A stretch of DNA of 64,000 bases from an uncultured Planctomycetales bacterium (GTDB lineage Bacteria; Omnitrophota; Gorgyraeia; Zapsychrales; JANLHA01). Made by a program: the position numbers and the translations under genes. Shown here piece after piece: positions 8,791 through 64,000 of this stretch (positions within the stretch are counted from its first letter, which is position 1; every line of letters begins with the position of its first letter). The stretch covers positions 797 to 64,796 of the forward strand of contig CAYYRJ010000013.1 of the NCBI GenBank assembly GCA_964474085.1. The letters are read 5' to 3'. Under the pieces are notes generated by a model. The model searched no databases. It was given only the letters and a program-made list of their open reading frames with translations, and had not been told where the DNA came from.

Positions 8791-10074
8791 ATGGAGTTAG
8801 AGTACAGTGACCTTAAGCAGATTGTTCATCAGTACTTGATCAAAAAAACGGATTTTTTAAAGATCAAAGACAACATGAACGATGACCAACTGCGTGTGTT
8901 TGTCGATAAAGCGCTGACAAACCTTTGCGCCGAGGATCATATTGATTTACCGACATCGACGAGGATTTTGCTTATTCGCGAGCTGGTCAGCGCTGTGGTA
9001 AGTTTAGGGCCCTTGCGACCGCTCATTGAAGACAAGACGATCACCGAAATTATGATCAATGGGGCTAATGCCGTTTATATTCAGAGAGAAGGAAAAATCA
9101 CATTAACGGACGTCAAGTTTAATTCCAATGAACAGTTGCTCCACACGATTCAAAAGGTCTTGGCCGGTTCTGGTTCAAATCGCCGTGTAGACGAATCTTC
9201 GCCGTATGTTGACTTTTCACTTGCTGACGGATCGCGTGTCAATGTCCTTTTACCGCCGTGTTCTTTGATTGGGCCGGTTATGACAATCCGTAAATTTGCT
9301 GATGTTCATACGGTCGAAGATTTGGTTAATCACGGCACATTAAACAAAAAAATGGCCGCGTTTTTAGTCGCCGCGATGAAGGCCAAACTGAATATCGTTT
9401 TCTGCGGGGCGACGGGAACTGGTAAGACGACAACGTTAAATATCTTTTCGCATTACTTGCCGGAGGACGAACGGATTGTGACCATTGAGGACACCCCGGA
9501 GTTGCGTTTGCTGCAAAAGCATGTGGTGTCCTTGCAATCTAAGCCGGCCAATATTGAAGGCAAGGGGGCGATTACGATTCGTGATCTTTTCGTGAACTCT
9601 TTGCGTATGCGACCTGACCGGATTATTATTGGCGAAATTCGTTCCGGTGAAATGCTTGATTTAATTGAATCGATTGCCTCCGGACATTCAGGGTCACTGG
9701 CGATTGTCCACGCGGAATCCCCTGAGGATTGCGTTAATCGCATGGTCACGATGATGCTTATGACGGGGATTCGGTTAAGTACGCAGGTGATTACCAAACA
9801 AGTTGTGCGTGCCATCGATTTGCTTGTGCATATTGAGCTTTTTCCCGACGGAGTTCGACGGATTACGCACATGAGCGATTTTGTTTTTGATGAAAAAACA
9901 CAAGAGACAAAACTTGAACATATCTTTGAATTTGTACAGGACAAAATTGATGAAAATGGAAAAATTAGCGGGCATTGGATTATGCCGGGGCATAAACCGT
10001 CGTTTTATGGGAAATTCCTAAAAAGGCATGTCACTTTGCCGGAAGGGTTTTTTGAAACAAAATCAGGAGATTAA
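8791..10074 (+). CDS. CpaF/TadA-VirB11-family secretion ATPase (orphan)
   Basis: Walker A GATGTGKTT. RMRPDRIIIGEIRSGE motif. HAES His-box. No neighbouring tad or pilus genes. Confidence 0.8.
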   Translation: MELEYSDLKQIVHQYLIKKTDFLKIKDNMNDDQLRVFVDKALTNLCAEDHIDLPTSTRILLIRELVSAVVSLGPLRPLIEDKTITEIMINGANAVYIQREGKITLTDVKFNSNEQLLHTIQKVLAGSGSNRRVDESSPYVDFSLADGSRVNVLLPPCSLIGPVMTIRKFADVHTVEDLVNHGTLNKKMAAFLVAAMKAKLNIVFCGATGTGKTTTLNIFSHYLPEDERIVTIEDTPELRLLQKHVVSLQSKPANIEGKGAITIRDLFVNSLRMRPDRIIIGEIRSGEMLDLIESIASGHSGSLAIVHAESPEDCVNRMVTMMLMTGIRLSTQVITKQVVRAIDLLVHIELFPDGVRRITHMSDFVFDEKTQETKLEHIFEFVQDKIDENGKISGHWIMPGHKPSFYGKFLKRHVTLPEGFFETKSGD

Positions 10075-11339: not shown

Positions 11340-11792
11340 ATGTTGACCGATATTCAAGCTCAAGTTGAAAGCATTGTTCCTCTAATTGTGGTAGCGGCTG
11401 GTTTGGATCTTGTTGAGCTTTCTGTCGCACAATCGGGGCTGGCTTATAAGATTGAAGTTCTTTGTGACCGGCCACAAGGAGGGATTACATTAGAAGAGTG
11501 CGTTAAACTCAATAAAGTGATTGTTGAAATTTTTGATTTACAGCCGTGGGCAGAGGATTATGAATTGGTCGTTGCCTCTCCGGGGCTGGATCGGCCCTTA
11601 AAGAATCAAAAAGACTTTGCCCGGATGTTAGGTAAGCGGGTCAAAGTTCTTTTGACCGAAAAAGTCGATGGCAAGGGAGAATATTCGGGTTTGGTCAAAG
11701 AGGTTTTTGAAGATGCTGTTTTAATCGCCGTAAGAAAAAAAGAAATTAAATTGCCGTACGACAAAATTTTGAAGGCGGGATTAATGATATAG
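11340..11792 (+). CDS. rimP: ribosome maturation factor RimP
   Basis: 150 aa. Directly upstream of nusA-infB. Confidence 0.8.
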   Translation: MLTDIQAQVESIVPLIVVAAGLDLVELSVAQSGLAYKIEVLCDRPQGGITLEECVKLNKVIVEIFDLQPWAEDYELVVASPGLDRPLKNQKDFARMLGKRVKVLLTEKVDGKGEYSGLVKEVFEDAVLIAVRKKEIKLPYDKILKAGLMI

Positions 11793-18631: not shown

Positions 18632-18659
18632 GTAGGGAACAGGCATGCCTGTTCCCTAC
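18632..18659. repeat. GTAG-headed palindrome of a second sequence family, immediately after the ruvB stop
   Basis: gtagggaacaggcatgcctgttccctac. Perfect 12-bp arms around catg. Confidence 0.6.
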
Positions 18660-40623: not shown

Positions 40624-40923
40624 TGCCATGTGCAAGTTTTATTTACCGACTTGGGAAAGTCCTTTTAGGCTCAATTGTTTTGCGCCTCTATGGCGCCATT
40701 CGCCTTAAAAGGGCTTCCCGAGTCGGGGCTTCATTTGCCATCGCGTTATTTAGCTAGATTTGAAAAATTTTTAAAGAAAATTTGCCTTTCTCGGGGAGTT
40801 TCTTTATACTTATGTGTATCTTATCTGTATTTATCTTTTGTAGCATCTCCATTTGACAGTATTTATTTGTTTTATCTAAAGAGGAAAAACTCTGTGCAGT
40901 CTCTCTTTCATCGAGATAGTCTA

Positions 40924-43704
40924 ATGTTTTTCAGAAAAATAATCAGCAGTTTTATTGTGTTGACGTTTTTGACGTCGCTTGTCGTCGTTCCGGCAGGGGG
41001 CCAGGTTTTTCTGGATGTCGCAACGTCCATTAACGCAAATGCTGGGTATCAGCCCCCCGTACTTTTAGGACTTAAAATCCATCCCGAAAATCCGCTTTTG
41101 TTTGATTTTATCGTCGACCAAGGGCAATCGAAACTTTCGACAGACGAACTAAAAGAGGAAACAACTAAGCTCGTCAAATATTTTCTCGCGGCGTTAACCA
41201 TTCCGGACAAAGAAGTTTGGGTCAACCTTTCGCCGACCGAAAAAGATCGAATTATTCCTGATGTTTTGGGCCAGACGACGATGGGCAAAACGATGCTTGA
41301 GCAGGATTATGTTTTAAAGCAATTGGCCGCCTCGCTCACCAATCCCGAAACGGATTTGGGGAAGAAATATTGGGAGCAGGTTAATGGGGCAAGGACGCTA
41401 GACGTTAGACGTTGGACGTTGGAAAAAACACCCAGCGTCCAGCCTCCAGCGACCAGCGATTTTAACAAGGTTTGGATCATGCCGGAAAAGGCCGAAGTTT
41501 TGGAAAGTAACGGGATTGTTTTGGTTGGCGAAAAGCGGTTGAAGGTGATGCTGGATGAGGAATATCAAGCCGTAGGGGCGTATTGCAATACGCCCCTACA
41601 GAAAAATGTTATTTCCTCCCAAATTTTCCGCACCACCATCCTTCCAACCATCGAAAAGGCCGTCAATGAAGGCAAAGAATTTGCCGACGTGCGTCAGATT
41701 TACAATTCCGTTATCCTCGCCGCATGGTACAAAAAGGCTTTAAAAGAAAGTTTGCTGGGCAAGATTTATACTGACAAAGGCAAAGTTGCCGGTGTTGAAA
41801 CCGACGACAAAACGATGAAACAACGCATTTATGAGCAATATTTAGCCGCCTTTAAAAAAGGCGCGTACAACCTGATAAAAGAAGAAGCCGACGAAAATGG
41901 TGATCTAATTCCGAGGAAATATTTTAGTGGGGGAATTGAGATTGCTGCATTTGGCGATGGGGCCAGGTCTTCATTGACAGAAAGAACCGTTTCATTACGA
42001 CAAGTAGAAGGGAGGATTGAAGGGATTAGTTCCAGCGTCGCTGTGACGGTCCAATTAGCCGCTACTAAAGATGAGTCTGGCGTGGTTTCCAGTGCCGCAA
42101 CGCAAGGAGAAGATGTTATTTTCGCCGCCGCCTCAAACTCTCTTCGACAAGATCCCAGCAGAAAAGTCAGTTATGGAAATACAAAATACCATTTGAGCAC
42201 AGTTATTAAAATTTTAGAAGAACTTGTTAATTATTGGGATGGTCAAGAGGATAATCCTGATAAATTTGCTACTCATGGCGTGCACGGCAAAATAATCACG
42301 AGTGTTCAACTGCTCTCTGCTCCCGGCGTTACTTTTTCGCTTGATGATATCCGTTTTAAATCCATATTTTTGGATAATTTAGTTAAACAGTTGAAAGTTC
42401 AAAATATCAAACGTCTTGACCCGATTAGGCTCTTTCAAGTTTGGGTTTCTCAAGATTTCAAATTAAATTTTGCTATTTCTAATTCTCAGAGAGTTAAAAA
42501 TATTACCATCGAGGATGCTAGGGCGATTTTTTTTAGAGACCTTTTACCGCTTATTAGGGATGAACTTCAAAAGTATTCGGACAATGCTGACCCCCAGCAA
42601 GCCTATTGGAGGACTGTTTCGGAAAGGACATCGGTTTTACTCAGTGGCCCTGTACAAAGAATCCAAGCAGTTTTGGATGCAAGCTATGATAAATTTCATC
42701 AAACAGGACACTTTCATGATTTAAACGCAATTTTATCGGATCCCTCCAGGGGCAGGTTGCGAGAAAGCTTTTCGAATATCCAAAATGTTATCGCCGAGGT
42801 TTTGGGTGACACTCAGAGTTTTGCATCCCAAAAAGCAGTGTTAGTGGGACAGCAAACCTATCCTCAGACAGAGAAAGCGGCCTATGTCAACGAAAGTTTT
42901 ATTCACGCAACACTTGTGAGTGATATTTTTTCAAGTTGGAAACAGAATGTGCGATTTCGAGAAAAACTAGCTTCAGAAACTTCACGAGTAGAAAAGCCAC
43001 TTGTTCAGGTCAAAGGTGTCCATCTGATGCCTGATTTAAGTGTTGCTTTTGAATTACAGGAAGTCAGGTGGAGACAGAACTCGAATGTTTTGAAAACCGT
43101 TAAAGAAACAGCAGCCCAACTAGCAGAAGATAACGGCCAAGCGCCTCGATATTTTCCAGACACGCTTGCCGCAACTGTTGCATATTTGTTTGGAAATGAT
43201 ATCAGTCGCAGCCAGCTTTTAGAACTTAATAGTCGTTTTAGTGAAATTAATATTCAATTGCAAAAAGATCCGATTACGTTTTTTATTGACGAAATGCAGT
43301 TGCAAAGCGGAACAAAAAAAGGATTTGTGGTTACTCGCAGTAAAACGCTCAAATTTTCCGCTTCGAGCGGGGTTGATGACAAGGTGAATGTTGCCTCAGC
43401 GCCCGTCGGAGGGCTTGACCGCCAAGTCGGCGGTATCGACTTTGACCCGACGAGCATGAATTTGCAAATTAAGCGCGACGGACGTGGTGTGCCGCTGCCA
43501 TTGCCGCAACAGAATTTGGAACAGATCAATATTCAGGGCTTGTTTCCCGTTATCATCAACATTACACCAATCAATGCGCAGACTTTGCCGATCTTTTTAG
43601 GGTTTACCCGCCCAAATTCTGGCGGTGGGCAGTCCTTTGAATCTTTTGGCGGGCAAGTGCCCAAAGAACCGGCCAAGGAAATTGAACAAGTCGCGGGGAC
43701 CTGA
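40924..43704 (+). CDS. large secreted protein A (926 aa). Its N-terminal ~400 aa domain is paralogous to protein B. Function unknown.
   Basis: Signal peptide at MFFRKIISSFIVLTFLTSLVVVPAGG. The N-terminal domain aligns with ORF 46345-50502 (WVNLSP...DRIIP; KVWI(M/V)P(E/D)KA). Contains an in-frame REP and an in-frame heptad-repeat hairpin. The ORF-track start 40675 is probably upstream junk. Confidence 0.7.
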   Translation: MFFRKIISSFIVLTFLTSLVVVPAGGQVFLDVATSINANAGYQPPVLLGLKIHPENPLLFDFIVDQGQSKLSTDELKEETTKLVKYFLAALTIPDKEVWVNLSPTEKDRIIPDVLGQTTMGKTMLEQDYVLKQLAASLTNPETDLGKKYWEQVNGARTLDVRRWTLEKTPSVQPPATSDFNKVWIMPEKAEVLESNGIVLVGEKRLKVMLDEEYQAVGAYCNTPLQKNVISSQIFRTTILPTIEKAVNEGKEFADVRQIYNSVILAAWYKKALKESLLGKIYTDKGKVAGVETDDKTMKQRIYEQYLAAFKKGAYNLIKEEADENGDLIPRKYFSGGIEIAAFGDGARSSLTERTVSLRQVEGRIEGISSSVAVTVQLAATKDESGVVSSAATQGEDVIFAAASNSLRQDPSRKVSYGNTKYHLSTVIKILEELVNYWDGQEDNPDKFATHGVHGKIITSVQLLSAPGVTFSLDDIRFKSIFLDNLVKQLKVQNIKRLDPIRLFQVWVSQDFKLNFAISNSQRVKNITIEDARAIFFRDLLPLIRDELQKYSDNADPQQAYWRTVSERTSVLLSGPVQRIQAVLDASYDKFHQTGHFHDLNAILSDPSRGRLRESFSNIQNVIAEVLGDTQSFASQKAVLVGQQTYPQTEKAAYVNESFIHATLVSDIFSSWKQNVRFREKLASETSRVEKPLVQVKGVHLMPDLSVAFELQEVRWRQNSNVLKTVKETAAQLAEDNGQAPRYFPDTLAATVAYLFGNDISRSQLLELNSRFSEINIQLQKDPITFFIDEMQLQSGTKKGFVVTRSKTLKFSASSGVDDKVNVASAPVGGLDRQVGGIDFDPTSMNLQIKRDGRGVPLPLPQQNLEQINIQGLFPVIINITPINAQTLPIFLGFTRPNSGGGQSFESFGGQVPKEPAKEIEQVAGT
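41402..41469. repeat. heptad minisatellite arranged as an inverted pair (long hairpin), in-frame inside the protein A gene
   Basis: aaggacg ctagacg ttagacg ttggacg ttgg, then aaaaaacaccc, then cagcgtc cagcctc cagcgac cagcg. Encodes GARTLDVRRWTLEKTPSVQPPATS. Confidence 0.6.
41572..41599. repeat. REP element embedded in-frame in the protein A gene
   Basis: gtaggggcgtattgcaatacgcccctac, encoding VGAYCNTPL. Confidence 0.8.
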
Positions 43705-56568: not shown

Positions 56569-58272
56569 ATGCCCGCACTTCTTACCCAAAAATTTTGGCA
56601 AGTTCGCAACCCTGATCCCTTTCTCCAAGTTTATTTAAGCAATGCTTTAAAAGTCCATCCACTGATCGCCCAGGTGCTGGCCAATCGTGGGATTACCAGC
56701 GCCGATGAGGGAAAAGAGTTTTTGTCCGCTGACTTAAACACTTTGCATGACCCTTTTCTTCTTAAAGATATGGACCGGGCTGTTTTGCGGATCCGGCAAG
56801 CGAAAGAGAACAAGGAAAAAGTTTTGGTTTTTGGCGATTATGACGTCGATGGGGTCACGTCGTCTGCCCTTTTGTATAAAATTTTTACCCGCTTAGGAAT
56901 TGCGGTGAGCAATCACATTCCGCATCGTATGTCCGACGGTTATGGCTTGAATGATTCGATCGGCCAAATTGCCAAAGAGGCGGGGATCAAACTTTTAATT
57001 GCCGTCGATTGCGGGATTACCGCAATTCGTGAAGTCGCACTTTTAAATGCGCTAGGCATTGACGTTATTATTCTGGACCATCACGAGCCGTCGGTGGAAG
57101 GTCTGCCTGCGGCATTTGCGATTGTGGATCCCAAACGCCATGATTGCAGTTATCCGTTTAAACATTTAGCTTCCGTCGGGCTGGTTGCAAAACTTTCGCA
57201 GGCACTTTTTGGAAAAGTCCCGGAAGAATACTTGGATTTGATTGCGCTGGGCACGATTGCGGATGTGGTGCCACTGCGTGGGGAAAACCGGATTTTTGTC
57301 AAAAACGGAATGCCGAAGTTAGGCGAAACCAAAAATTTTGGTCTTGCCGCTTTAATCGACGGCGCTAAGATCCGCGGCAAAAAGTTTAGGCCTCATTATG
57401 TTGGTTTTATTTTAGGCCCGCGCATTAATGCGACGGGGCGCATGGGCTCGGCTCACAAATCTCTTGAGCTTCTTTTGTCGTGCGATGGGCCGACGGCTTT
57501 TGGTTTGGCGCAAGAGCTTGAAGAATTTAACAGCGAACGTCAGCGACTTCAAAAGCAAGTTGTCGAAGAAGCGATGCAGATGATCGAACAGGAAATCAAT
57601 TTTAAAGAACATAAAGTGATTGTCTTATGCCAACAAGGTTGGCACAAAGGCGTTTTGGGCATTGTTGCTTCGCGTGTGGCCGAAACGTATTATCGGCCGA
57701 CGATTATTATTTCGCTGGAAAATGGCGTCGGGACAGCGTCCGCGCGGTCGATTGAAGGCTTTCACTTAAATGAAGCGCTTGAGCATTGCTCGGAGATTTT
57801 AGTGACCTTTGGCGGACACAAACTTGCCGCTGGCCTAACGATTAAAGAGGAACATGTCGAGAATTTTAGACGTAAGATCAACGATTTTGCCAAAGATATT
57901 TTGGAAATCCGCAATATGATTCCCACCATCTCCATTGACGCAGAAGTTTCGCTCTCTTCGCTGAGCTTGGAAGTCGCCCAGCTGATTGAAAGTTTAGAGC
58001 CCTACGGCGAGGGCAATGCGACCCCGGTGTTTTGTTCTCGCCAGCTGGTGGTCAAAAGTCCGCCGAGCTTGATGGGCAAGGACACGATTAAATTTTGGGT
58101 AAGCGACGGGCAAAGCAGCATTTCGGCGGTGGGTTTTGGCATGGCCAAGTACGCGGATTTAGTCCGTCCCGGCGCCCAAGTCGACCTTGCCTATGAATTG
58201 ACCATTGATGATTGGAACAAAAGCCCCGTGCCACAGCTAAAGCTCAAGGACATTCGCGAGAGCGGGGGGTAG
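56569..58272 (+). CDS. recJ: single-stranded-DNA-specific exonuclease RecJ
   Basis: DHH motifs (VFGDYDVDGVTS, DHH at ILDHHEP). DHHA1 GGH motif. 567 aa. Confidence 0.9.
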   Translation: MPALLTQKFWQVRNPDPFLQVYLSNALKVHPLIAQVLANRGITSADEGKEFLSADLNTLHDPFLLKDMDRAVLRIRQAKENKEKVLVFGDYDVDGVTSSALLYKIFTRLGIAVSNHIPHRMSDGYGLNDSIGQIAKEAGIKLLIAVDCGITAIREVALLNALGIDVIILDHHEPSVEGLPAAFAIVDPKRHDCSYPFKHLASVGLVAKLSQALFGKVPEEYLDLIALGTIADVVPLRGENRIFVKNGMPKLGETKNFGLAALIDGAKIRGKKFRPHYVGFILGPRINATGRMGSAHKSLELLLSCDGPTAFGLAQELEEFNSERQRLQKQVVEEAMQMIEQEINFKEHKVIVLCQQGWHKGVLGIVASRVAETYYRPTIIISLENGVGTASARSIEGFHLNEALEHCSEILVTFGGHKLAAGLTIKEEHVENFRRKINDFAKDILEIRNMIPTISIDAEVSLSSLSLEVAQLIESLEPYGEGNATPVFCSRQLVVKSPPSLMGKDTIKFWVSDGQSSISAVGFGMAKYADLVRPGAQVDLAYELTIDDWNKSPVPQLKLKDIRESGG

Positions 58273-58287
58273 GATCTTTAAAATTCT

Positions 58288-58313
58288 GTAGGGGCGTATT
58301 GCCATACGCCCTT
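58288..58313. repeat. REP element (GTAG-headed palindrome, ttgcca-centre variant)
   Basis: gtaggggcgtattgccatacgccctt. 8-bp stem gggcgtat/atacgccc. Confidence 0.75.
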
Positions 58314-58324
58314 CTTCAAAAGCT

Positions 58325-59365
58325 ATGCCTACCAAATCAAAACAATCCATTATTAAATCTGTAGACATTAGCAGTTATTCGTCGCTGGTTAAGCTGGTGC
58401 GGGAAGAATTTGCGAGTTTGGAATTTTTTGTCAAAAGCCGAACGGTACAGGGATATTGGCAGGTCGGAAAGTTCGTTCACGACCATCTTTTGCACCACCA
58501 AGAACGCGCAGAATACGGCAATCAACTCTTTGAGCGGCTGGGAAAAGATTCGGGAAGAGATTCAAGTACTTTGCAAAAAATGTTGAGGTTTTATCGGACG
58601 TATCCAATTCTGGCAACGTTGCCAGAATTGACGTGGAGTCATTTTTTGGCTTTAATGGCTGTTAAAGATAAAGGGGAAAGAATTCGGCTTGAAAAAGAAA
58701 TTATTCAAAAAGAGTGGGATGTCCGTAAGCTCCAGAAATATTTGAATATTAAACGCAAATTGGTTCCTGCCGGTGCGAATTCGTCTGTCCCGCAATTAAA
58801 GTTTACCCGTGGCAGGCCGCATATTTACCAGATTATAAAAGCGGTCCCGCCGCTTTTGGCCCAGCATCCCTTGGTTTTGGATTTGGGCTTTCGTTTACAA
58901 GATACAATTCCCGCCAATGAGCTGGGTTTAAAAGAGCAGGACTTTGTGGAACTTATTATTAAGGGAAATAAAATCGTCGGTGTAGGAACGACCCAAGTCG
59001 AAAAGGACGAACTATTCACTTACGCGGCGAGCGTCCAAAAAGTTGTCGACGGGGATACCTTGATTGCGACGCTGGATTTTAAAAGCACTTTTAGCATTAG
59101 TCAAAAAATGCGTCTGCGCGGGATTGATTGCCCGGAGCTCGACACTGAGGAAGGCCAGAAGGCCAAACGTTTTGTCGAAGATCGCCTGAAGAATTGTGAT
59201 TTTATTATTGTGAAAACTTACAAAGACCGCACCGACCGTTTTGACCGGTATTTGGCGGACATTTTTTATTGGCCCGGCGAAGCTGATGAAAACAAAGTTG
59301 CCCGTCAGGGGAAATATCTTAATCAGGAGCTTTTGGACGAACGTCTGGCGGTGGTGTACGTGTGA
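58325..59365 (+). CDS. fusion protein: YhcG/DUF1016-type N-terminal domain plus C-terminal staphylococcal-nuclease (SNase/thermonuclease)-like domain
   Basis: The N-terminus resembles the DUF1016 N-domain (YWQVGKFV..., TLPELTWSHFLALMAV). The C-terminus resembles SNase (DGDTLIATLD...MRLRGIDCPE...ERLAVVY). Flanked by REPs. Confidence 0.6.
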   Translation: MPTKSKQSIIKSVDISSYSSLVKLVREEFASLEFFVKSRTVQGYWQVGKFVHDHLLHHQERAEYGNQLFERLGKDSGRDSSTLQKMLRFYRTYPILATLPELTWSHFLALMAVKDKGERIRLEKEIIQKEWDVRKLQKYLNIKRKLVPAGANSSVPQLKFTRGRPHIYQIIKAVPPLLAQHPLVLDLGFRLQDTIPANELGLKEQDFVELIIKGNKIVGVGTTQVEKDELFTYAASVQKVVDGDTLIATLDFKSTFSISQKMRLRGIDCPELDTEEGQKAKRFVEDRLKNCDFIIVKTYKDRTDRFDRYLADIFYWPGEADENKVARQGKYLNQELLDERLAVVYV

Positions 59366-59370
59366 TTTTT

Positions 59371-59395
59371 GGGACGTATTGCCATACGCCCTTAC
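59371..59395. repeat. REP element variant
   Basis: gggacgtattgccatacgcccttac followed by the conserved tail acaaatg. Confidence 0.7.
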
Positions 59396-59544
59396 AAATG
59401 TATTTCGTTGACCATTTCAAACCTTTGGAAAGAATTTTCTTCCCAAAATCTGTTTGCCCCCATCGTTGCCCAGTGATAATATTTACCAGCCCCTTTAAGA
59501 ATTCCCCAATTAAAAATTCTACCCCTCTGTTTTCAGGAGGAGTT

Positions 59545-60063
59545 ATGTCAAAGATTATCATCCCGTTAGAGCGTATCGAAAAGAAGATCTATTTGATTCG
59601 AGGACACAAAGTCATGTTCGATTTTGATTTGGCGGAACTTTACGAAGTGCCAACCAAGCGTCTTAAAGAGCAGGTTAAACGTAATATCGGTAGATTTCCG
59701 GATGATTTTATGTTTCAATTGACCCTTGAGGAAGTCAAAATCTTGAGGCCGCAAATTGCGACCTCAAGTTGGGGCGGTTCACGTTATTTGCCATATGTTT
59801 TTACTGAACAAGGGACGGCCATGTTATCGAGCGTATTAAGCAGTCAACGGGCTATCGCTGTTAACATTGCTATAATCCGTGCGTTCGTTAAACTGCGGGA
59901 AATGATGGCGACCCATCATGATCTTGCAAAAAAGATCAATGACCTTGAAAGACAGTACAAAGATCACGATCAAAAGATTGTTATGATTTACGAAGCGATA
60001 CGTAATCTCATGACTCCGGCGCAGGAGCCAGCTAAGCGTAAAATTGGATTTCATGCGGATTAA
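59545..60063 (+). CDS. ORF6N-domain DNA-binding protein (mobile-element associated), copy 1
   Basis: IRGHKVMFDFDLAELYEVPTKRLKEQVKRNIGRFPDDFMFQLT matches the ORF6N pattern. GGAGG RBS. Confidence 0.7.
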   Translation: MSKIIIPLERIEKKIYLIRGHKVMFDFDLAELYEVPTKRLKEQVKRNIGRFPDDFMFQLTLEEVKILRPQIATSSWGGSRYLPYVFTEQGTAMLSSVLSSQRAIAVNIAIIRAFVKLREMMATHHDLAKKINDLERQYKDHDQKIVMIYEAIRNLMTPAQEPAKRKIGFHAD

Positions 60064-60067
60064 AAAA

Positions 60068-60094
60068 CAGGGGCGTAGGAGAATACGCCCCTAG
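60068..60094. repeat. REP-like palindrome (ggagaa-loop variant)
   Basis: caggggcgtaggagaatacgcccctag. 9-bp stem. Identical copy at 63218. Confidence 0.7.
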
Positions 60095-60180
60095 ATAACA
60101 CGAAAGAAATTTTCTTATAGAATATTATATTAATTAATCCGTACGGCTATCCCCACCGTCTTTAATCGAAGGGAGATGCC

Positions 60181-60717
60181 ATGCGTGATCTAAAACGAAA
60201 ATCCATTCGGCTAAAAACATTTAACTACTCTCAGGTTGGCGCTTATTACATTACTCTCTGTTCTTTGAATCGCACATGCTTATTTGGTGAAATATGTGAT
60301 GATCAGGTAACATTAAGCCCTTTTGGAAAAATTGTTTTCTATGAATGGTTAAATACACCGATTCTACGACCCAATATTCAATTGGATGAATTTATTGTCA
60401 TGCCGAATCATTCCCATGGGATTATTATAATTAATGAAACCTGTAGGGGCGTATTGCAATACGCCCCTACAAATATGTTTCGTTCACCATTGCAAACCGT
60501 TGGGGCGATTGTACGCGGCTTTAAATCTGCGGTAACAAATAAAATCAACATATTAAGAAAATCGCCAGGTCAACCTGTTTGGCAACGAAATTATTTTGAA
60601 CACATTATTCGCGATGATTCTGATATGGAACGCATTCGGGAATATATTTACAATAATCCAAAGAATTGGGAAACAGATGAAAATAATCAGGAGAGATCAA
60701 TAGGGTCTGCGGATTGA
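60181..60717 (+). CDS. REP-associated tyrosine transposase (RAYT; IS200/IS605-like HuH Y1 transposase), copy 1
   Basis: 178 aa. HuH motif MPNHSHGII. Catalytic Tyr block WQRNYFEHIIRD. Cognate GTAG-headed REP palindromes nearby and inside the gene. Confidence 0.8.
   Translation: MRDLKRKSIRLKTFNYSQVGAYYITLCSLNRTCLFGEICDDQVTLSPFGKIVFYEWLNTPILRPNIQLDEFIVMPNHSHGIIIINETCRGVLQYAPTNMFRSPLQTVGAIVRGFKSAVTNKINILRKSPGQPVWQRNYFEHIIRDDSDMERIREYIYNNPKNWETDENNQERSIGSAD
60443..60470. repeat. REP element (perfect palindrome) embedded in-frame in the RAYT gene
   Basis: gtaggggcgtattgcaatacgcccctac, encoding RGVLQYAPT. Confidence 0.8.
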
Positions 60718-60848
60718 TGGACATCGTAATTTGAATTAATCAAAGTCCTGGTAGGGATTCTCTAAACACATACCGTAACCCGAATTAAAGGTAAAGAAAT
60801 TTGTTGCTGAAAGATAAGGTTTCGGTATGTGGCTGGGGTTTCAAATTA

Positions 60849-60912
60849 CGTCATCCTGAGCGAAGCGAAGGATCTCGGTGGAGATTCTTCGGCCTTCGGC
60901 CTCAGAATGACG
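60849..60912. repeat. MITE-like palindromic element, related family (GTCATCCTGAGCGAAGCGAAGG)
   Basis: cgtcatcctgagc ... gcctcagaatgacg. Internal ggccttcggcc hairpin. Confidence 0.55.
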
Positions 60913-60996
60913 ACCATAAGAAAAAATTTACAAACACTTCATTGAATAACAGTTGAGTAGAATCAATTGATTTTTAACATAGGAGGTGTTGTTTAT

Positions 60997-61872
60997 ATGA
61001 AAAAGTTAATTTTTATTTTTATATTTACCTTTATCTGTTTGCCGGTTTTTGCCGATACGATTACGCTGCCAATTATTGTTGCTCCCCAAGTCGAACAAGG
61101 AGCCATCGATGTCCTTGAGGAAATTGGGCAGGATGCAATTGAAATTCCGTTAAACCCACTGCGCAAGCTGGATGGTTTTAGCCGCGAAGATATTTTTAAT
61201 AGTCGACGTGAAAATGTCAATAAGATATCGGGTTTTGCTCCCCCTAATTATGCACCCAGCATGGACGCTTTCGGTCAAATACAGGATGGTAAACCCTGGT
61301 GGGGCCTTTTGGGCTTAAGTTATTTTGGCCCGGGAATGCAGAGCATTGAAGGCCACTCCAGAGAGTCCCAGTTTATTGACAACCCCTACATCCTCGCCGG
61401 AGTTTGTGAAAAATTTGCCAATATTGTTACGAATAAATCCCTTGCTCCCCAAGAAATTTACGCTAAACCGCTTAAATTAATATGGGGACGTGATAGAAGC
61501 TGGGGACAAATCACTTATAATGTGAGCCAAGCGTATCAATCCGCTGTTTTGTACAGGTACATAGATCCGCAAGAAAATTATTTAGCTGTTATCAATGCGA
61601 GAGATTTTGGGTTTAATTTTTTTGCGATCGACGCTAGTCGGTCTCGAAACATTAGAGCGACTGTAAATAAAATTTTGCCGATTATTCAGTTTATTCACAC
61701 CGGAGGCAGTTGTGGTTATCCCGGTGGGTGTAATAACCGTAGCCCAACTCAGCCAGAATTGAATTTCAAATGGAATATGTTGCCGGCAAGGATTTATCTT
61801 AAGCTTTGGAGAAGCCAGCCGCAGGATTTTTCTCAAAAGGCAGATATGGATTTTGTTATAGATTTAAAATGA
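60997..61872 (+). CDS. secreted hypothetical protein
   Basis: Signal peptide MKKLIFIFIFTFICLPVFA. AGGAGG RBS. No recognisable domain. Confidence 0.5.
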   Translation: MKKLIFIFIFTFICLPVFADTITLPIIVAPQVEQGAIDVLEEIGQDAIEIPLNPLRKLDGFSREDIFNSRRENVNKISGFAPPNYAPSMDAFGQIQDGKPWWGLLGLSYFGPGMQSIEGHSRESQFIDNPYILAGVCEKFANIVTNKSLAPQEIYAKPLKLIWGRDRSWGQITYNVSQAYQSAVLYRYIDPQENYLAVINARDFGFNFFAIDASRSRNIRATVNKILPIIQFIHTGGSCGYPGGCNNRSPTQPELNFKWNMLPARIYLKLWRSQPQDFSQKADMDFVIDLK

Positions 61873-61914
61873 GACTAGGGAAAGTGTTTTAGACTCAGAT
61901 CTGCGGGTGCCTAA

Positions 61915-62007
61915 GTTGACCTTGCCTATAAATTGACCATTGACGATTGGAATAAAAGCCCCGTGCCACAACTAAAGCTCAAAGATATTCGGGAGAGCGG
62001 GGGGTAG
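61915..62007 (+). repeat. diverged direct repeat of the recJ 3' end (duplicate of 58180-58272)
   Basis: 93 nt with about 9 mismatches. It translates in frame to VDLAYKLTIDDWNKSPVPQLKLKDIRESGG*, which differs from the RecJ C-terminus at one residue. Confidence 0.8.
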
Positions 62008-62067
62008 CAGGGTGGGGCAAGGTTGCCGGCGAGGGCATTAAGTTCAATAAAAATAGGAGTGAAAAAT

Positions 62068-62493
62068 ATGGTTGAGAATAAAAAACCATTGATTGGCATT
62101 GGGTTTCTTGTTGCATTTGCGTTTGTGTGGGGAATAATTTCGTACTTTTCAATGGCAATGTTTGTAGGGAGCATGAGTGGGAGATTAGCCCCTGTTGACT
62201 ACGTGCGCCCGTGGACTAGTTATTTTTTGTTCAGTAAAGATTTTCTAATAAATATTTTGATTTGGGTAATAATCGTTTTGCCGTTTATTTCTGGGATCGG
62301 TCTTTTAATCGGAAAGAATTGGGCGCGGATATTGTATATTGCCTGTTGTTCTGCTCAAATGTTTTGGGTTTTATTTAATATTGTCAAGAATTTTTCTGTC
62401 GGTGCTATTCCGTTTATTTTACTTTACGTGTGTATTTTTTCTTTTCCGATTTGGTATTTGAATCGTTCAAAAGTCAAAGAACAATTTAAGTAG
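62068..62493 (+). CDS. small integral membrane protein, hypothetical
   Basis: Four predicted transmembrane segments. Its stop codon lies in the GTAG head of a REP. Confidence 0.45.
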   Translation: MVENKKPLIGIGFLVAFAFVWGIISYFSMAMFVGSMSGRLAPVDYVRPWTSYFLFSKDFLINILIWVIIVLPFISGIGLLIGKNWARILYIACCSAQMFWVLFNIVKNFSVGAIPFILLYVCIFSFPIWYLNRSKVKEQFK

Positions 62494-62517
62494 GGGCGTA
62501 TTGAAATACGCCCTTAC
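62490..62517. repeat. REP element (ttgaaa-centre variant)
   Basis: gtaggggcgtattgaaatacgcccttac. The TAG of the GTAG head is the stop codon of the upstream membrane-protein gene. Confidence 0.7.
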
Positions 62518-62703
62518 TATTAAATCCCCCAACCCCCTTTGTTAAAGGGGGAGCCGCAGGCGGGGGATTTGAATGAAAAGTAGGTGTTTCGATATTTTTG
62601 TGCAAAAATCTATTTGCCCCCATCATTGTCGAGTGATAATATTTACCAGCCCCGTAAGAATTCCCCAATTAAAAATCCTACCCCTCTGCCTTGAGGAGGA
62701 GTT

Positions 62704-63213
62704 ATGTCAAAGATTGTTATTGAACAAGAATGGATTGAACGCAAAATTTATTTTATTCGGGGTAAGAAAGTCATGGTTGATCGTGATTTAGCCGAATTAT
62801 ACGAGGTCCCAACGAAATCATTAAATCTTGCAGTTAGGCGTAATGCAGATCGTTTTCCACAAGATTTCATGTTTCAATTGACAGCACAGGAAGCAGAAAT
62901 CTTGAGGTTTCAATCTGAAACCTCAAGTTGGGGTGGGCAACGATACTTGCCGTATGTTTTTACTCAATAGGGTGTTGCTATGCTTTCGGGTGTCTTAAGG
63001 AGCAAGCGTGCGGTTAATGTCAATATAGAAATTATGCGTGCTTTTGTCCGCTTACGACAAATTTTATCTGTACATAAGGAGTTGGATCGCAAACTTCAAG
63101 ATTTAGAAAAAAAATACGACAATCAGTTTAAAGCTGTCTTTGATGCTATTCGTCAGTTGATGACTCCGGCGCAGGAGCCAGCTAAGCGCAAAATTGGATT
63201 TCATGCGGATTAA
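62704..63213 (+). pseudogene. ORF6N-domain protein, copy 2, interrupted by in-frame TAG at 62971-62973
   Basis: Same frame as copy 1 on both sides of the stop (62704-62970 and 62980-63213). Copy 1 has caaggg where copy 2 has tagggt. Confidence 0.7.
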
Positions 63214-63217
63214 AAAA

Positions 63218-63244
63218 CAGGGGCGTAGGAGAATACGCCCCTAG
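63218..63244. repeat. REP-like palindrome (ggagaa-loop variant)
   Basis: Identical to 60068-60094. Confidence 0.7.
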
Positions 63245-63330
63245 ATAACACGAAAGAAATTTTCTTATAGAATATTATATTAATTAATCCGTACGGCTAT
63301 CCCCACCGTCTTTAATCGAAGGGAGATGCC

Positions 63331-63867
63331 ATGCGTGATCTAAAACGAAAATCCATTCGGCTAAAAACATTTAACTACTCTCAGGTTGGCGCTTATTACA
63401 TTACTCTCTGTTCTTTGAATCGCACATGCTTATTTGGTGAAATATGTGATGATCAGGTAACATTAAGCCCTTTTGGAAAAATTGTTTTCTATGAATGGTT
63501 AAATACACCGATTCTACGACCCAATATTCAATTGGATGAATTTATTGTCATGCCGAATCATTTTCATGGGATTATCATAATTAATGAAACTGGTAGGGGC
63601 GTATTGCAATACGCCCCTACCAAAGCATTCCGTTCACCGTCTCAAACGATTGGATCGATTGTGCGTGGGTTTAAAGGTGCGGTAACAAATAAAATTAATA
63701 CGTTGAGAAAATCGCCAGGTCAACCTATTTGGCAACGAAATTATTTTGAACACATTATTCGTGATGATTTTGACATGGAACGCATTCGGGAATATATTTG
63801 CAATAATCCAAAGAATTGGGAAACAGATGAAAATAATCAGGAGAGATCAATAGGGTCTGCGGATTGA
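63331..63867 (+). CDS. REP-associated tyrosine transposase (RAYT), copy 2
   Basis: 178 aa, about 93% identical to copy 1. HuH motif MPNHFHGII. WQRNYFEHIIRD block. Internal REP. Confidence 0.8.
   Translation: MRDLKRKSIRLKTFNYSQVGAYYITLCSLNRTCLFGEICDDQVTLSPFGKIVFYEWLNTPILRPNIQLDEFIVMPNHFHGIIIINETGRGVLQYAPTKAFRSPSQTIGSIVRGFKGAVTNKINTLRKSPGQPIWQRNYFEHIIRDDFDMERIREYICNNPKNWETDENNQERSIGSAD
63593..63620. repeat. REP element embedded in-frame in RAYT copy 2
   Basis: gtaggggcgtattgcaatacgcccctac. Confidence 0.8.
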
Positions 63868-63941
63868 TGGACATCGTAATTTGAATTAATCAAAGTCCTG
63901 GTAGGGATTCTTTAAACACATACCGTAACCCGAATTAACTC

Positions 63942-63968
63942 GTAGGGACGTATGGCCTACGCCCTTAC
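63942..63968. repeat. REP element variant
   Basis: gtagggacgtatggcctacgcccttac followed by acaaatg. Confidence 0.6.
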
Positions 63969-64000
63969 AAATGTTTTTTTACAAACAAAAAAGCCTGTGC

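Follow-up and report, generated by a model that had tools for sequence, protein, structure and literature searches.

Introduction

REP-associated tyrosine transposases (RAYTs, or TnpA_REP proteins) are paired with repetitive extragenic palindromes (REPs), and the closest described relatives of the genes considered here form TnpA_REP subclass 2.4 of Quentin, Siguier, Chandler and Fichant (2018; BMC Genomics 19:475; PMC6006769), which corresponds to RAYT Group 4 of Bertels, Gallie and Rainey (2017). According to the published account, subclass 2.4 has the motifs NH[IFV]H, WQ and YIxNNP (Table 1 of PMC6006769), a median length of 194 aa, a mean of 1.5 copies per genome and representatives in Cyanobacteria and Bacteroidota; its REPs are 'double foot' (5' GT[AG]G, 3' C[TC]AC) and, as a 'unique feature', lie in frame within tnpA_REP in the stretch that separates the HuH motif from the Y motif. 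The GTAG foot is a published RAYT recognition feature (PMC6006769, PMC3733652), and Di Nocera et al. (2013, PMC3733652) document in-frame GTAG REPs in genes other than those of RAYTs. Here we describe a 64,000-nt stretch of an Omnitrophota genome (contig CAYYRJ010000013.1, positions 797 to 64,796; hereafter the window) in which two RAYT-like genes, each preceded by an ORF6N-domain gene, lie behind recJ.

We hold with good confidence that this region is a recJ-associated island with two paralogous RAYTs of subclass 2.4 (Group 4) that contain their cognate REPs in frame, and that the ORF6N genes are cargo. A RAYT carrying its own REP in frame is, by the published account of the subclass, an already described trait; what is new is an Omnitrophota example, present in two copies, of a RAYT subclass with an in-frame substrate palindrome.

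Two predicted RAYTs

Both 178-aa open reading frames (ORFs), RAYT-1 and RAYT-2, contain MPNH(S/F)HGII and WQRNYFEHIIRD. Pfam Y1_Tnp matched them with 25.6 and 21.4 bits (cut-off 23), and NCBIfam REP_Tyr_transpos (NF047646), which aligned with the C-terminal half only, scored 51.8 and 53.6 bits, below its cut-off of 80. A PDB hmmsearch with a profile of 30 homologues found only 4ER8, the E. coli TnpA_REP. The same structure, TnpA_REP bound to a REP hairpin, was the best Foldseek match to an AlphaFold2 model (predicted local distance difference test, pLDDT, 82.7; root-mean-square deviation 2.0 over 151 columns), followed by the ISDra2 and IS608 TnpA transposases. Since family profiles, the 4ER8 sequence match and the modelled fold agree, both proteins are, on sequence and model, true Y1 HuH enzymes of RAYT type, as a first-pass annotation of the window had proposed. 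That annotation had also named WQRNYFEH as the Y1 block; this is the W motif (VWQRNYFEH or IWQRNYFEH), and the catalytic tyrosine is predicted from the subclass 2.4 motifs to be Y155 in YIxNNP (YIYNNP or YICNNP). W134, Q135, Y155 and N159 are invariant among the 30 homologues. The HuH motif is PNHFH in RAYT-2 and PNHSH, deviating at the middle residue, in RAYT-1. A database search returned 1903 RAYT homologues, the closest in Candidatus Omnitrophota and many in Cyanobacteria and Bacteroidota.

By their motifs and in-gene REP, the window RAYTs fit subclass 2.4 (Group 4) as its published account delimits it. The likeness covers the WQ and YIxNNP motifs, the HuH motif as met by NHFH of RAYT-2, a length of ~180-190 aa without C-terminal extension, a variable insertion between β3 (HuH) and αC that corresponds to the in-frame REP, double-foot REPs lying <1 kb from the gene, a patchy spread over phyla, and few REP copies. 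The departures from that account are NHSH in RAYT-1, the host (Omnitrophota, apparently not among the phyla it names), the presence of two copies 3.15 kb apart versus a mean of 1.5 per genome, and a setting within an island that adjoins the recJ 3' end.

With E. coli TnpA_REP/RayT (4ER8; subclass 2.2; NF047646), the window RAYTs share the Y1 HuH fold, a small single-domain architecture and, as predicted for them, recognition of a GTAG-footed REP hairpin, but identity is only ~19% and the NF047646 cut-off is not reached. E. coli REPs moreover number in the hundreds and are extragenic, bulged and single-footed, with none inside the gene, unlike those of the window RAYTs. IS200/IS605 TnpA proteins (subclass 1.1) have Y---Q and DH[VI]H, whereas the window RAYTs have NHxH and, in YIxNNP, an Asn; none of the neighbouring ORFs scanned had a Pfam match to the TnpB family. 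Rickettsia palindromic elements and the GTAG/CGTC REPs found in ORFs (PMC3733652) are likewise short in-frame palindromes in a tolerant loop or linker, a likeness that takes in both the RAYT genes and the copy at 41572 described below, but here the transposase gene is the most conserved host and the position is fixed.

An in-frame REP at a fixed position

The window contains a palindrome family, GTAG-GGGCGTATTGCAATACGCCCC-TAC, whose double-foot form is GTAG GGGCGTATTGCAATACGCCC CTAC. Scanning with the 20-nt core at ≤3 mismatches gave six matches, versus none in 100 shuffles, and a relaxed scan gave nine copies, versus none in 20 shuffles. The family is therefore real, and the proposal that it represents GTAG-headed REPs cognate to the RAYTs stands. 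Only three copies are the perfect 28-mer GTAGGGGCGTATTGCAATACGCCCCTAC, and all three lie within ORFs: one at 41572 and one in each RAYT gene, where the REP occupies codons 88-97. Folded as single-stranded DNA (ssDNA), the perfect REP has a free energy of -14.4 kcal/mol (z -6.9). The peptide that it encodes (residues 89-97) is a loop with pLDDT <50 in the RAYT model.

The position of the palindrome was followed through 84 genes, comprising 80 reference-genome loci, two close relatives (L081 and L082) and the two window RAYTs. RGVLQYAPT, the encoded peptide, hardly varies among the 30 best homologues, although these represent many phyla. A 28-nt GT[AG]G...C[TC]AC palindrome occurs at a common position in 43 of the 84 genes, and the central 12-mers of these 43 comprise 20 distinct sequences, all self-complementary. 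Translation passes through it in frame 0 (VGA...PL.) in 20 genes and in frame 1 (.RG...APT) in 23; none of the 43 uses the frame in which TAG would be a stop. Covariation of self-complementary cores, together with the use of two frames that avoid TAG, points to selection on the hairpin rather than on the peptide. The identical 28-mer is shared by RAYTs from several phyla that are only ~55% identical in protein, certain homologous genes contain two to four tandem palindrome copies, and of the 82 fetched loci, 23 have the gene's own in-gene hairpin outside the gene as well, mostly <1 kb away. The constraint acts on the hairpin, as DNA or as RNA, and every gene has a palindrome that matches the local REPs. 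The survey thereby refines the published trait: about half of the 84 genes have the palindrome at one fixed site, and its core covaries over 20 variants.

Eight of the nine window copies lie at 58.2-64 kb, where the first-pass annotation had counted ten; the further copy that it placed at 41572 is present. The six intergenic copies are degenerate (2-7 mismatches, with an indel as well in the one at 63942) and fold less well as ssDNA, at -5.5 to -11 kcal/mol. The palindromes had been placed at almost every gene boundary; not all copies are at such boundaries, and the only perfect ones are inside ORFs. Five copies (59368, 60067, 62490, 63217 and 63942) are within ~1 kb of the RAYTs, and REPs also adjoin the RAYT gene in L081 and L082; in alignment, the hairpin at 60067 corresponds to the upstream REP in the RAYT unit of L081. 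The ~86 kb fetched, with partial overlap, from sister genomes contained no REP copy.

Proposed mechanism and points against it

In the reading that we prefer, the 28-bp double-foot REP (GTAG-stem-loop-stem-CTAC) that each RAYT gene contains in frame is its cognate one, placed in a disordered loop that joins the HuH strand to the next helix. By analogy with E. coli TnpA_REP and the IS200/IS605 paradigm, the RAYT would bind the REP hairpin on ssDNA, read the GTAG foot, and cut and rejoin there. Occasional cutting and rejoining would seed copies, giving rise to the degenerate REPs at nearby gene boundaries, and the perfect in-frame copy at 41572 would be a seeded copy, probably a recent one. What is conserved is the palindrome, not the peptide, and an in-gene REP would keep enzyme and substrate linked through vertical and horizontal inheritance. 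The ORF6N cargo would have been duplicated along with the RAYT, with later gene conversion homogenising the DNA that reaches from the 3' end of ORF6N to the RAYT. This RAYT family offers a clean system in which to study how a domesticated transposase remains tied to its repeat.

Several observations weigh against this scheme. RAYT-1 may be impaired, judging from the Ser that replaces the hydrophobic HuH residue. Dispersal is thinly evidenced because a single REP copy lies outside the island across 58 kb of the window, so that the family, which had been called dense, is so only locally. At 41572 the linker is too divergent and variable among the aligned homologues to define an empty site. Some extragenic 'REPs' appear from their flanks to be RAYT gene fragments: the ~40 nt after the 59368-59395 REP resemble the part of the RAYT coding sequence that immediately follows the in-gene REP on its 3' side, and an extragenic 87-nt fragment in L081 (9833-9919), 92% identical to the gene, extends from the HuH region as far as the REP. 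Copies with RAYT-coding flanks could thus have come from gene-fragment duplication or recombination, not transposition. The two units, finally, may owe their present form to gene conversion or to independent acquisition.

Duplication of the RAYT unit

The whole [leader-ORF6N-REP-RAYT-tail] unit had been described as tandemly duplicated. The RAYT-containing unit is indeed duplicated ~3150 bp apart, but the identity profile is a mosaic and not that of a clean tandem repeat. ORF6N leaders are ~90% identical between copies and ORF6N bodies only ~65-70% in DNA (64.5% in protein), whereas the 781-bp block from 60009 to 60789 is near identical to its counterpart (Table 1). The RAYT proteins are 93% identical; codons 1-77 are the same, and the genes differ at 27 codons, 15 of them synonymously and 12 not, every one within 78-157, beginning beside the in-gene REP.

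The possibility that the C-terminus common to both ORF6N proteins had been added by the RAYT unit was rejected, as ORF6N homologues elsewhere end in the same ...PxxKRRIGF motif. The shared 3' end is therefore native to ORF6N, and the block boundary at 60009 accordingly looks like that of a conversion tract. From these sequence relations we infer that an old local duplication came first and a recent gene-conversion tract was laid over it.

The recJ-rpmB slot

rpmB lies directly 3' of recJ in four relatives (L163, L165, L167 and L171; RecJ homologues 70-85% identical), and in L169 and L170 the slot is occupied by a gene for an acyltransferase or for a rhodanese. Because the slot is empty or differently filled in relatives, it is variable, and the segment from 58273 to at least 64000 is, on sequence comparison, an accessory island inserted after recJ. 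All genes from recJ to the window end, and the recJ-tail copy, are on the + strand (Table 1).

Table 1. Genes, palindromes and repeats of the island and its surroundings (window coordinates)
Feature	Coordinates	Strand	Remarks
Perfect 28-nt REP	41572..41599	.	In frame as QAVGAYCNTPLQK, in variable linker of 1009-aa Omnitrophota-specific ORF
recJ	56569-58272	+	Gene directly 5' of island
Native recJ 3' end	58171..58272	+	
Degenerate REP	58288..58315	.	4 mismatches; 15 nt past recJ stop
DUF1016_N + SNase gene	58325..59365	+	346 aa; island cargo; 72% identical to L081-island gene
Degenerate REP (59368-59395) with ~40 nt RAYT-like coding sequence	59368..59440	+	
ORF6N-1	59545..60063	+	172 aa; PF10543, E 5e-35
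Near-identical 781-bp block	60009..60789 = 63159-63939	+	Last 55 nt of ORF6N, hairpin, RAYT 5' untranslated region, RAYT, 72-nt tail
Variant hairpin GGGGCGTA-GGAGAA-TACGCCCC	60067..60094	.	3 nt past ORF6N-1 stop
RAYT-1	60181..60717	+	178 aa; subclass 2.4-like TnpA_REP; atypical HuH (NHSH)
Perfect 28-nt double-foot REP in RAYT-1	60443..60470	.	Codes RGVLQYAPT; loop between HuH strand and next helix
Secreted-protein gene	between RAYT-1 and recJ-tail copy	+	301 aa
Duplicated recJ 3'-end fragment (recJ-tail copy)	61906..62007	+	102 nt, 90% identical
Membrane-protein gene	between recJ-tail copy and ORF6N-2	+	156 aa
REP	62490..62517	.	2 mismatches; TAG of GTAG foot is stop codon of 156-aa ORF
ORF6N-2	62704..63213	+	PF10543, E 2e-28; in-frame TAG 62971-62973
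Variant hairpin, copy 2	63217..63244	.	100% identical to 60067..60094 hairpin
RAYT-2	63331..63867	+	178 aa; NHFH, WQ, YICNNP
Perfect 28-nt double-foot REP in RAYT-2	63593..63620	.	Residues 89-97; surface loop, pLDDT <50
Degenerate REP	63942..63968	.	After RAYT-2 tail; includes indel

Two cargo proteins have matches among PADLOC candidates. ORF6N-1 aligns over residues 1-169 with positions 1-175 of the 177 of PDC-S05 (E 1.1e-60) and has an anti-repressor-like match in PHROGs, and the N-terminal part of the DUF1016_N + SNase protein matches PDC-S02. The PDC-S05 and PDC-S02 matches fit accessory, island-type cargo, and the island looks like a defence island, a role for which these proteins are database candidates only. 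Neither PADLOC nor PHROGs gave a match for the RAYT, the 301-aa or the 156-aa protein. The sole match of an Rfam scan of 57.5-64 kb, a miRNA model over the palindrome, was below threshold and was discounted as a chance match.

Small palindromic elements of other sequence (GTCATCCTGAGCGAAGCGAAGGATCTC...CTCAGAATGAC and CCCCCTTTGTTAAAGGGGGAGCCGCAGGCGGGGG) are present in intergenic parts of the island at 60838-60912 and 62516-62565; neither these nor the leader or the RAYT tail had a copy across the fetched loci. The related L081 island contains an intergenic tandem array (11626-11755) of about five 26-nt units (GGCAGGTAAACCCGCCACAAAGCGCT).

Repeats of the recJ terminus

Between them, the native recJ 3' end and its downstream copy enclose a block of 3.7 kb within the island. 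In L081, where the island likewise follows argS-recJ and which is the closest relative with synteny, a 27-mer from the recJ terminus occurs four times (8800, 8874, 9798 and 10583), one copy being 100% identical. Extra copies of the recJ terminus were seen only in the window and L081, both of which have a RAYT in the recJ-rpmB slot, and in none of six other relatives, two of them with other inserts.

Direct repeats that bracket blocks in the two RAYT-holding slots, in genomes that are not mutual closest relatives by RecJ identity, would be expected if RAYT-bearing blocks were cassettes that integrate repeatedly and site-specifically at the stop codon of recJ, itself contained in a GTAG, and copy the recJ terminus each time. 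Integration would then be due to the RAYT or to a recombinase encoded beyond the contig end, and the REPs would be by-products. Were this so, subclass 2.4 RAYTs or their REPs would move or capture multi-gene segments besides 28-bp palindromes, and the ORF6N-RAYT pair could be the backbone of one cassette type. We regard this as unlikely, however: Y1 HuH peel-and-paste transposition, as established for IS608 and ISDra2, proceeds without target duplication; no integrase was found in the sequenced part of the island, the window and L081 islands both reaching contig ends; the pattern comes from two genomes; and homologous recombination between REPs or between recJ tails would look alike. The recJ tail was also considered as a REP-like hairpin and dropped, its fold not being significant (z -0.96).

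The ORF6N genes

An ORF6N gene does stand upstream of each RAYT, as had been noted, and both match PF10543 (Table 1). ORF6N / KilA-N-like proteins of anti-repressor type, the family to which ORF6N-1 is linked by this match, differ from the REP systems above in having no known RAYT link, and no publication was found on QYAPT or on RAYT together with ORF6N. The pairing had led to the proposal of a co-mobilised or co-regulated two-gene module, in which the mobile unit would be [leader-ORF6N-REP-RAYT-tail] and ORF6N a DNA-binding accessory or a regulator of the transposase. Within the window the proposal has some appeal: the adjacency occurs twice with equal order and spacing, the ORF6N leader is well conserved between copies, the genes are 117 nt apart without a T-rich terminator on the + strand, and the copies may lie in separate cassettes, with a recJ-tail repeat before each.

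The pairing does not extend to other genomes. tblastn with both ORF6N proteins found no ORF6N within ≤10 kb (where the contig allows) at any of the 82 RAYT loci, which span many phyla, and 32 RAYT queries found no RAYT at any of 80 loci of ORF6N relatives (369 kb; 49 loci with at least 700 nt downstream), so that the adjacency is seen only here. In the closest relatives the RAYT unit has other neighbours. The gene upstream of it in L081 is a Fic gene, and similarity begins at the upstream hairpin (60069 = L081 9892); in L082 the unit stands behind unrelated small ORFs, and similarity begins ~45 nt before the ATG. ORF6N-2, moreover, has its TAG where ORF6N-1 has CAA (Gln) and is probably a pseudogene by this comparison; recoding of TAG is unlikely because neighbouring genes end in TAG. 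The ORF6N bodies have diverged far more than the RAYTs, and a promoter-like site between ORF6N and RAYT is a further, weak argument against the module. A module is thus very improbable. Because the surveyed RAYT loci lack ORF6N, the surveyed ORF6N loci lack RAYTs and the RAYT units of the closest relatives have other neighbours, ORF6N looks like a local passenger of the island and not a functional partner of the RAYT.

An element, CCGTACGGCTATCCCCACCGTC, is conserved ~45 nt before the RAYT start codon in the window (60138-60160), L082 (928-950) and L081 (~9958-9980), and may serve to regulate the RAYT unit.

Other palindromes and repeats

That the palindromes are ordinary terminators or mRNA-stabilising hairpins, present in RAYT genes by coincidence, is hardly credible: four copies (58288, 60067, 62490 and 63217) do lie right behind stop codons and some are terminator-like in a simple scan, but the 28-mer keeps a fixed codon position in RAYT genes across many phyla, lineage-specific in-gene variants recur beside their own gene, the coding strand of most copies has no T-run, and the GTAG foot is the one that RAYTs are known to recognise.

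Two further repeats were seen elsewhere in the window. At 18632-18659, between genes, there is another perfect 28-nt double-foot palindrome, of different sequence (GTAGGGAACAGGCATGCCTGTTCCCTAC); it hints at a second REP family, perhaps with another RAYT elsewhere in the genome. Inside the ORF at 40675-43704, a repeat-like stretch at 41395-41465 (tagacgttagacgttggacgttgg ... ccagcgtccagcctccagcgaccagcg) has TLDVRRWTLEKTPSVQPPATS as its in-frame translation; it sits in a variable linker of this Omnitrophota-specific protein family, and homologues have other repeat-encoded peptides in the corresponding linkers.

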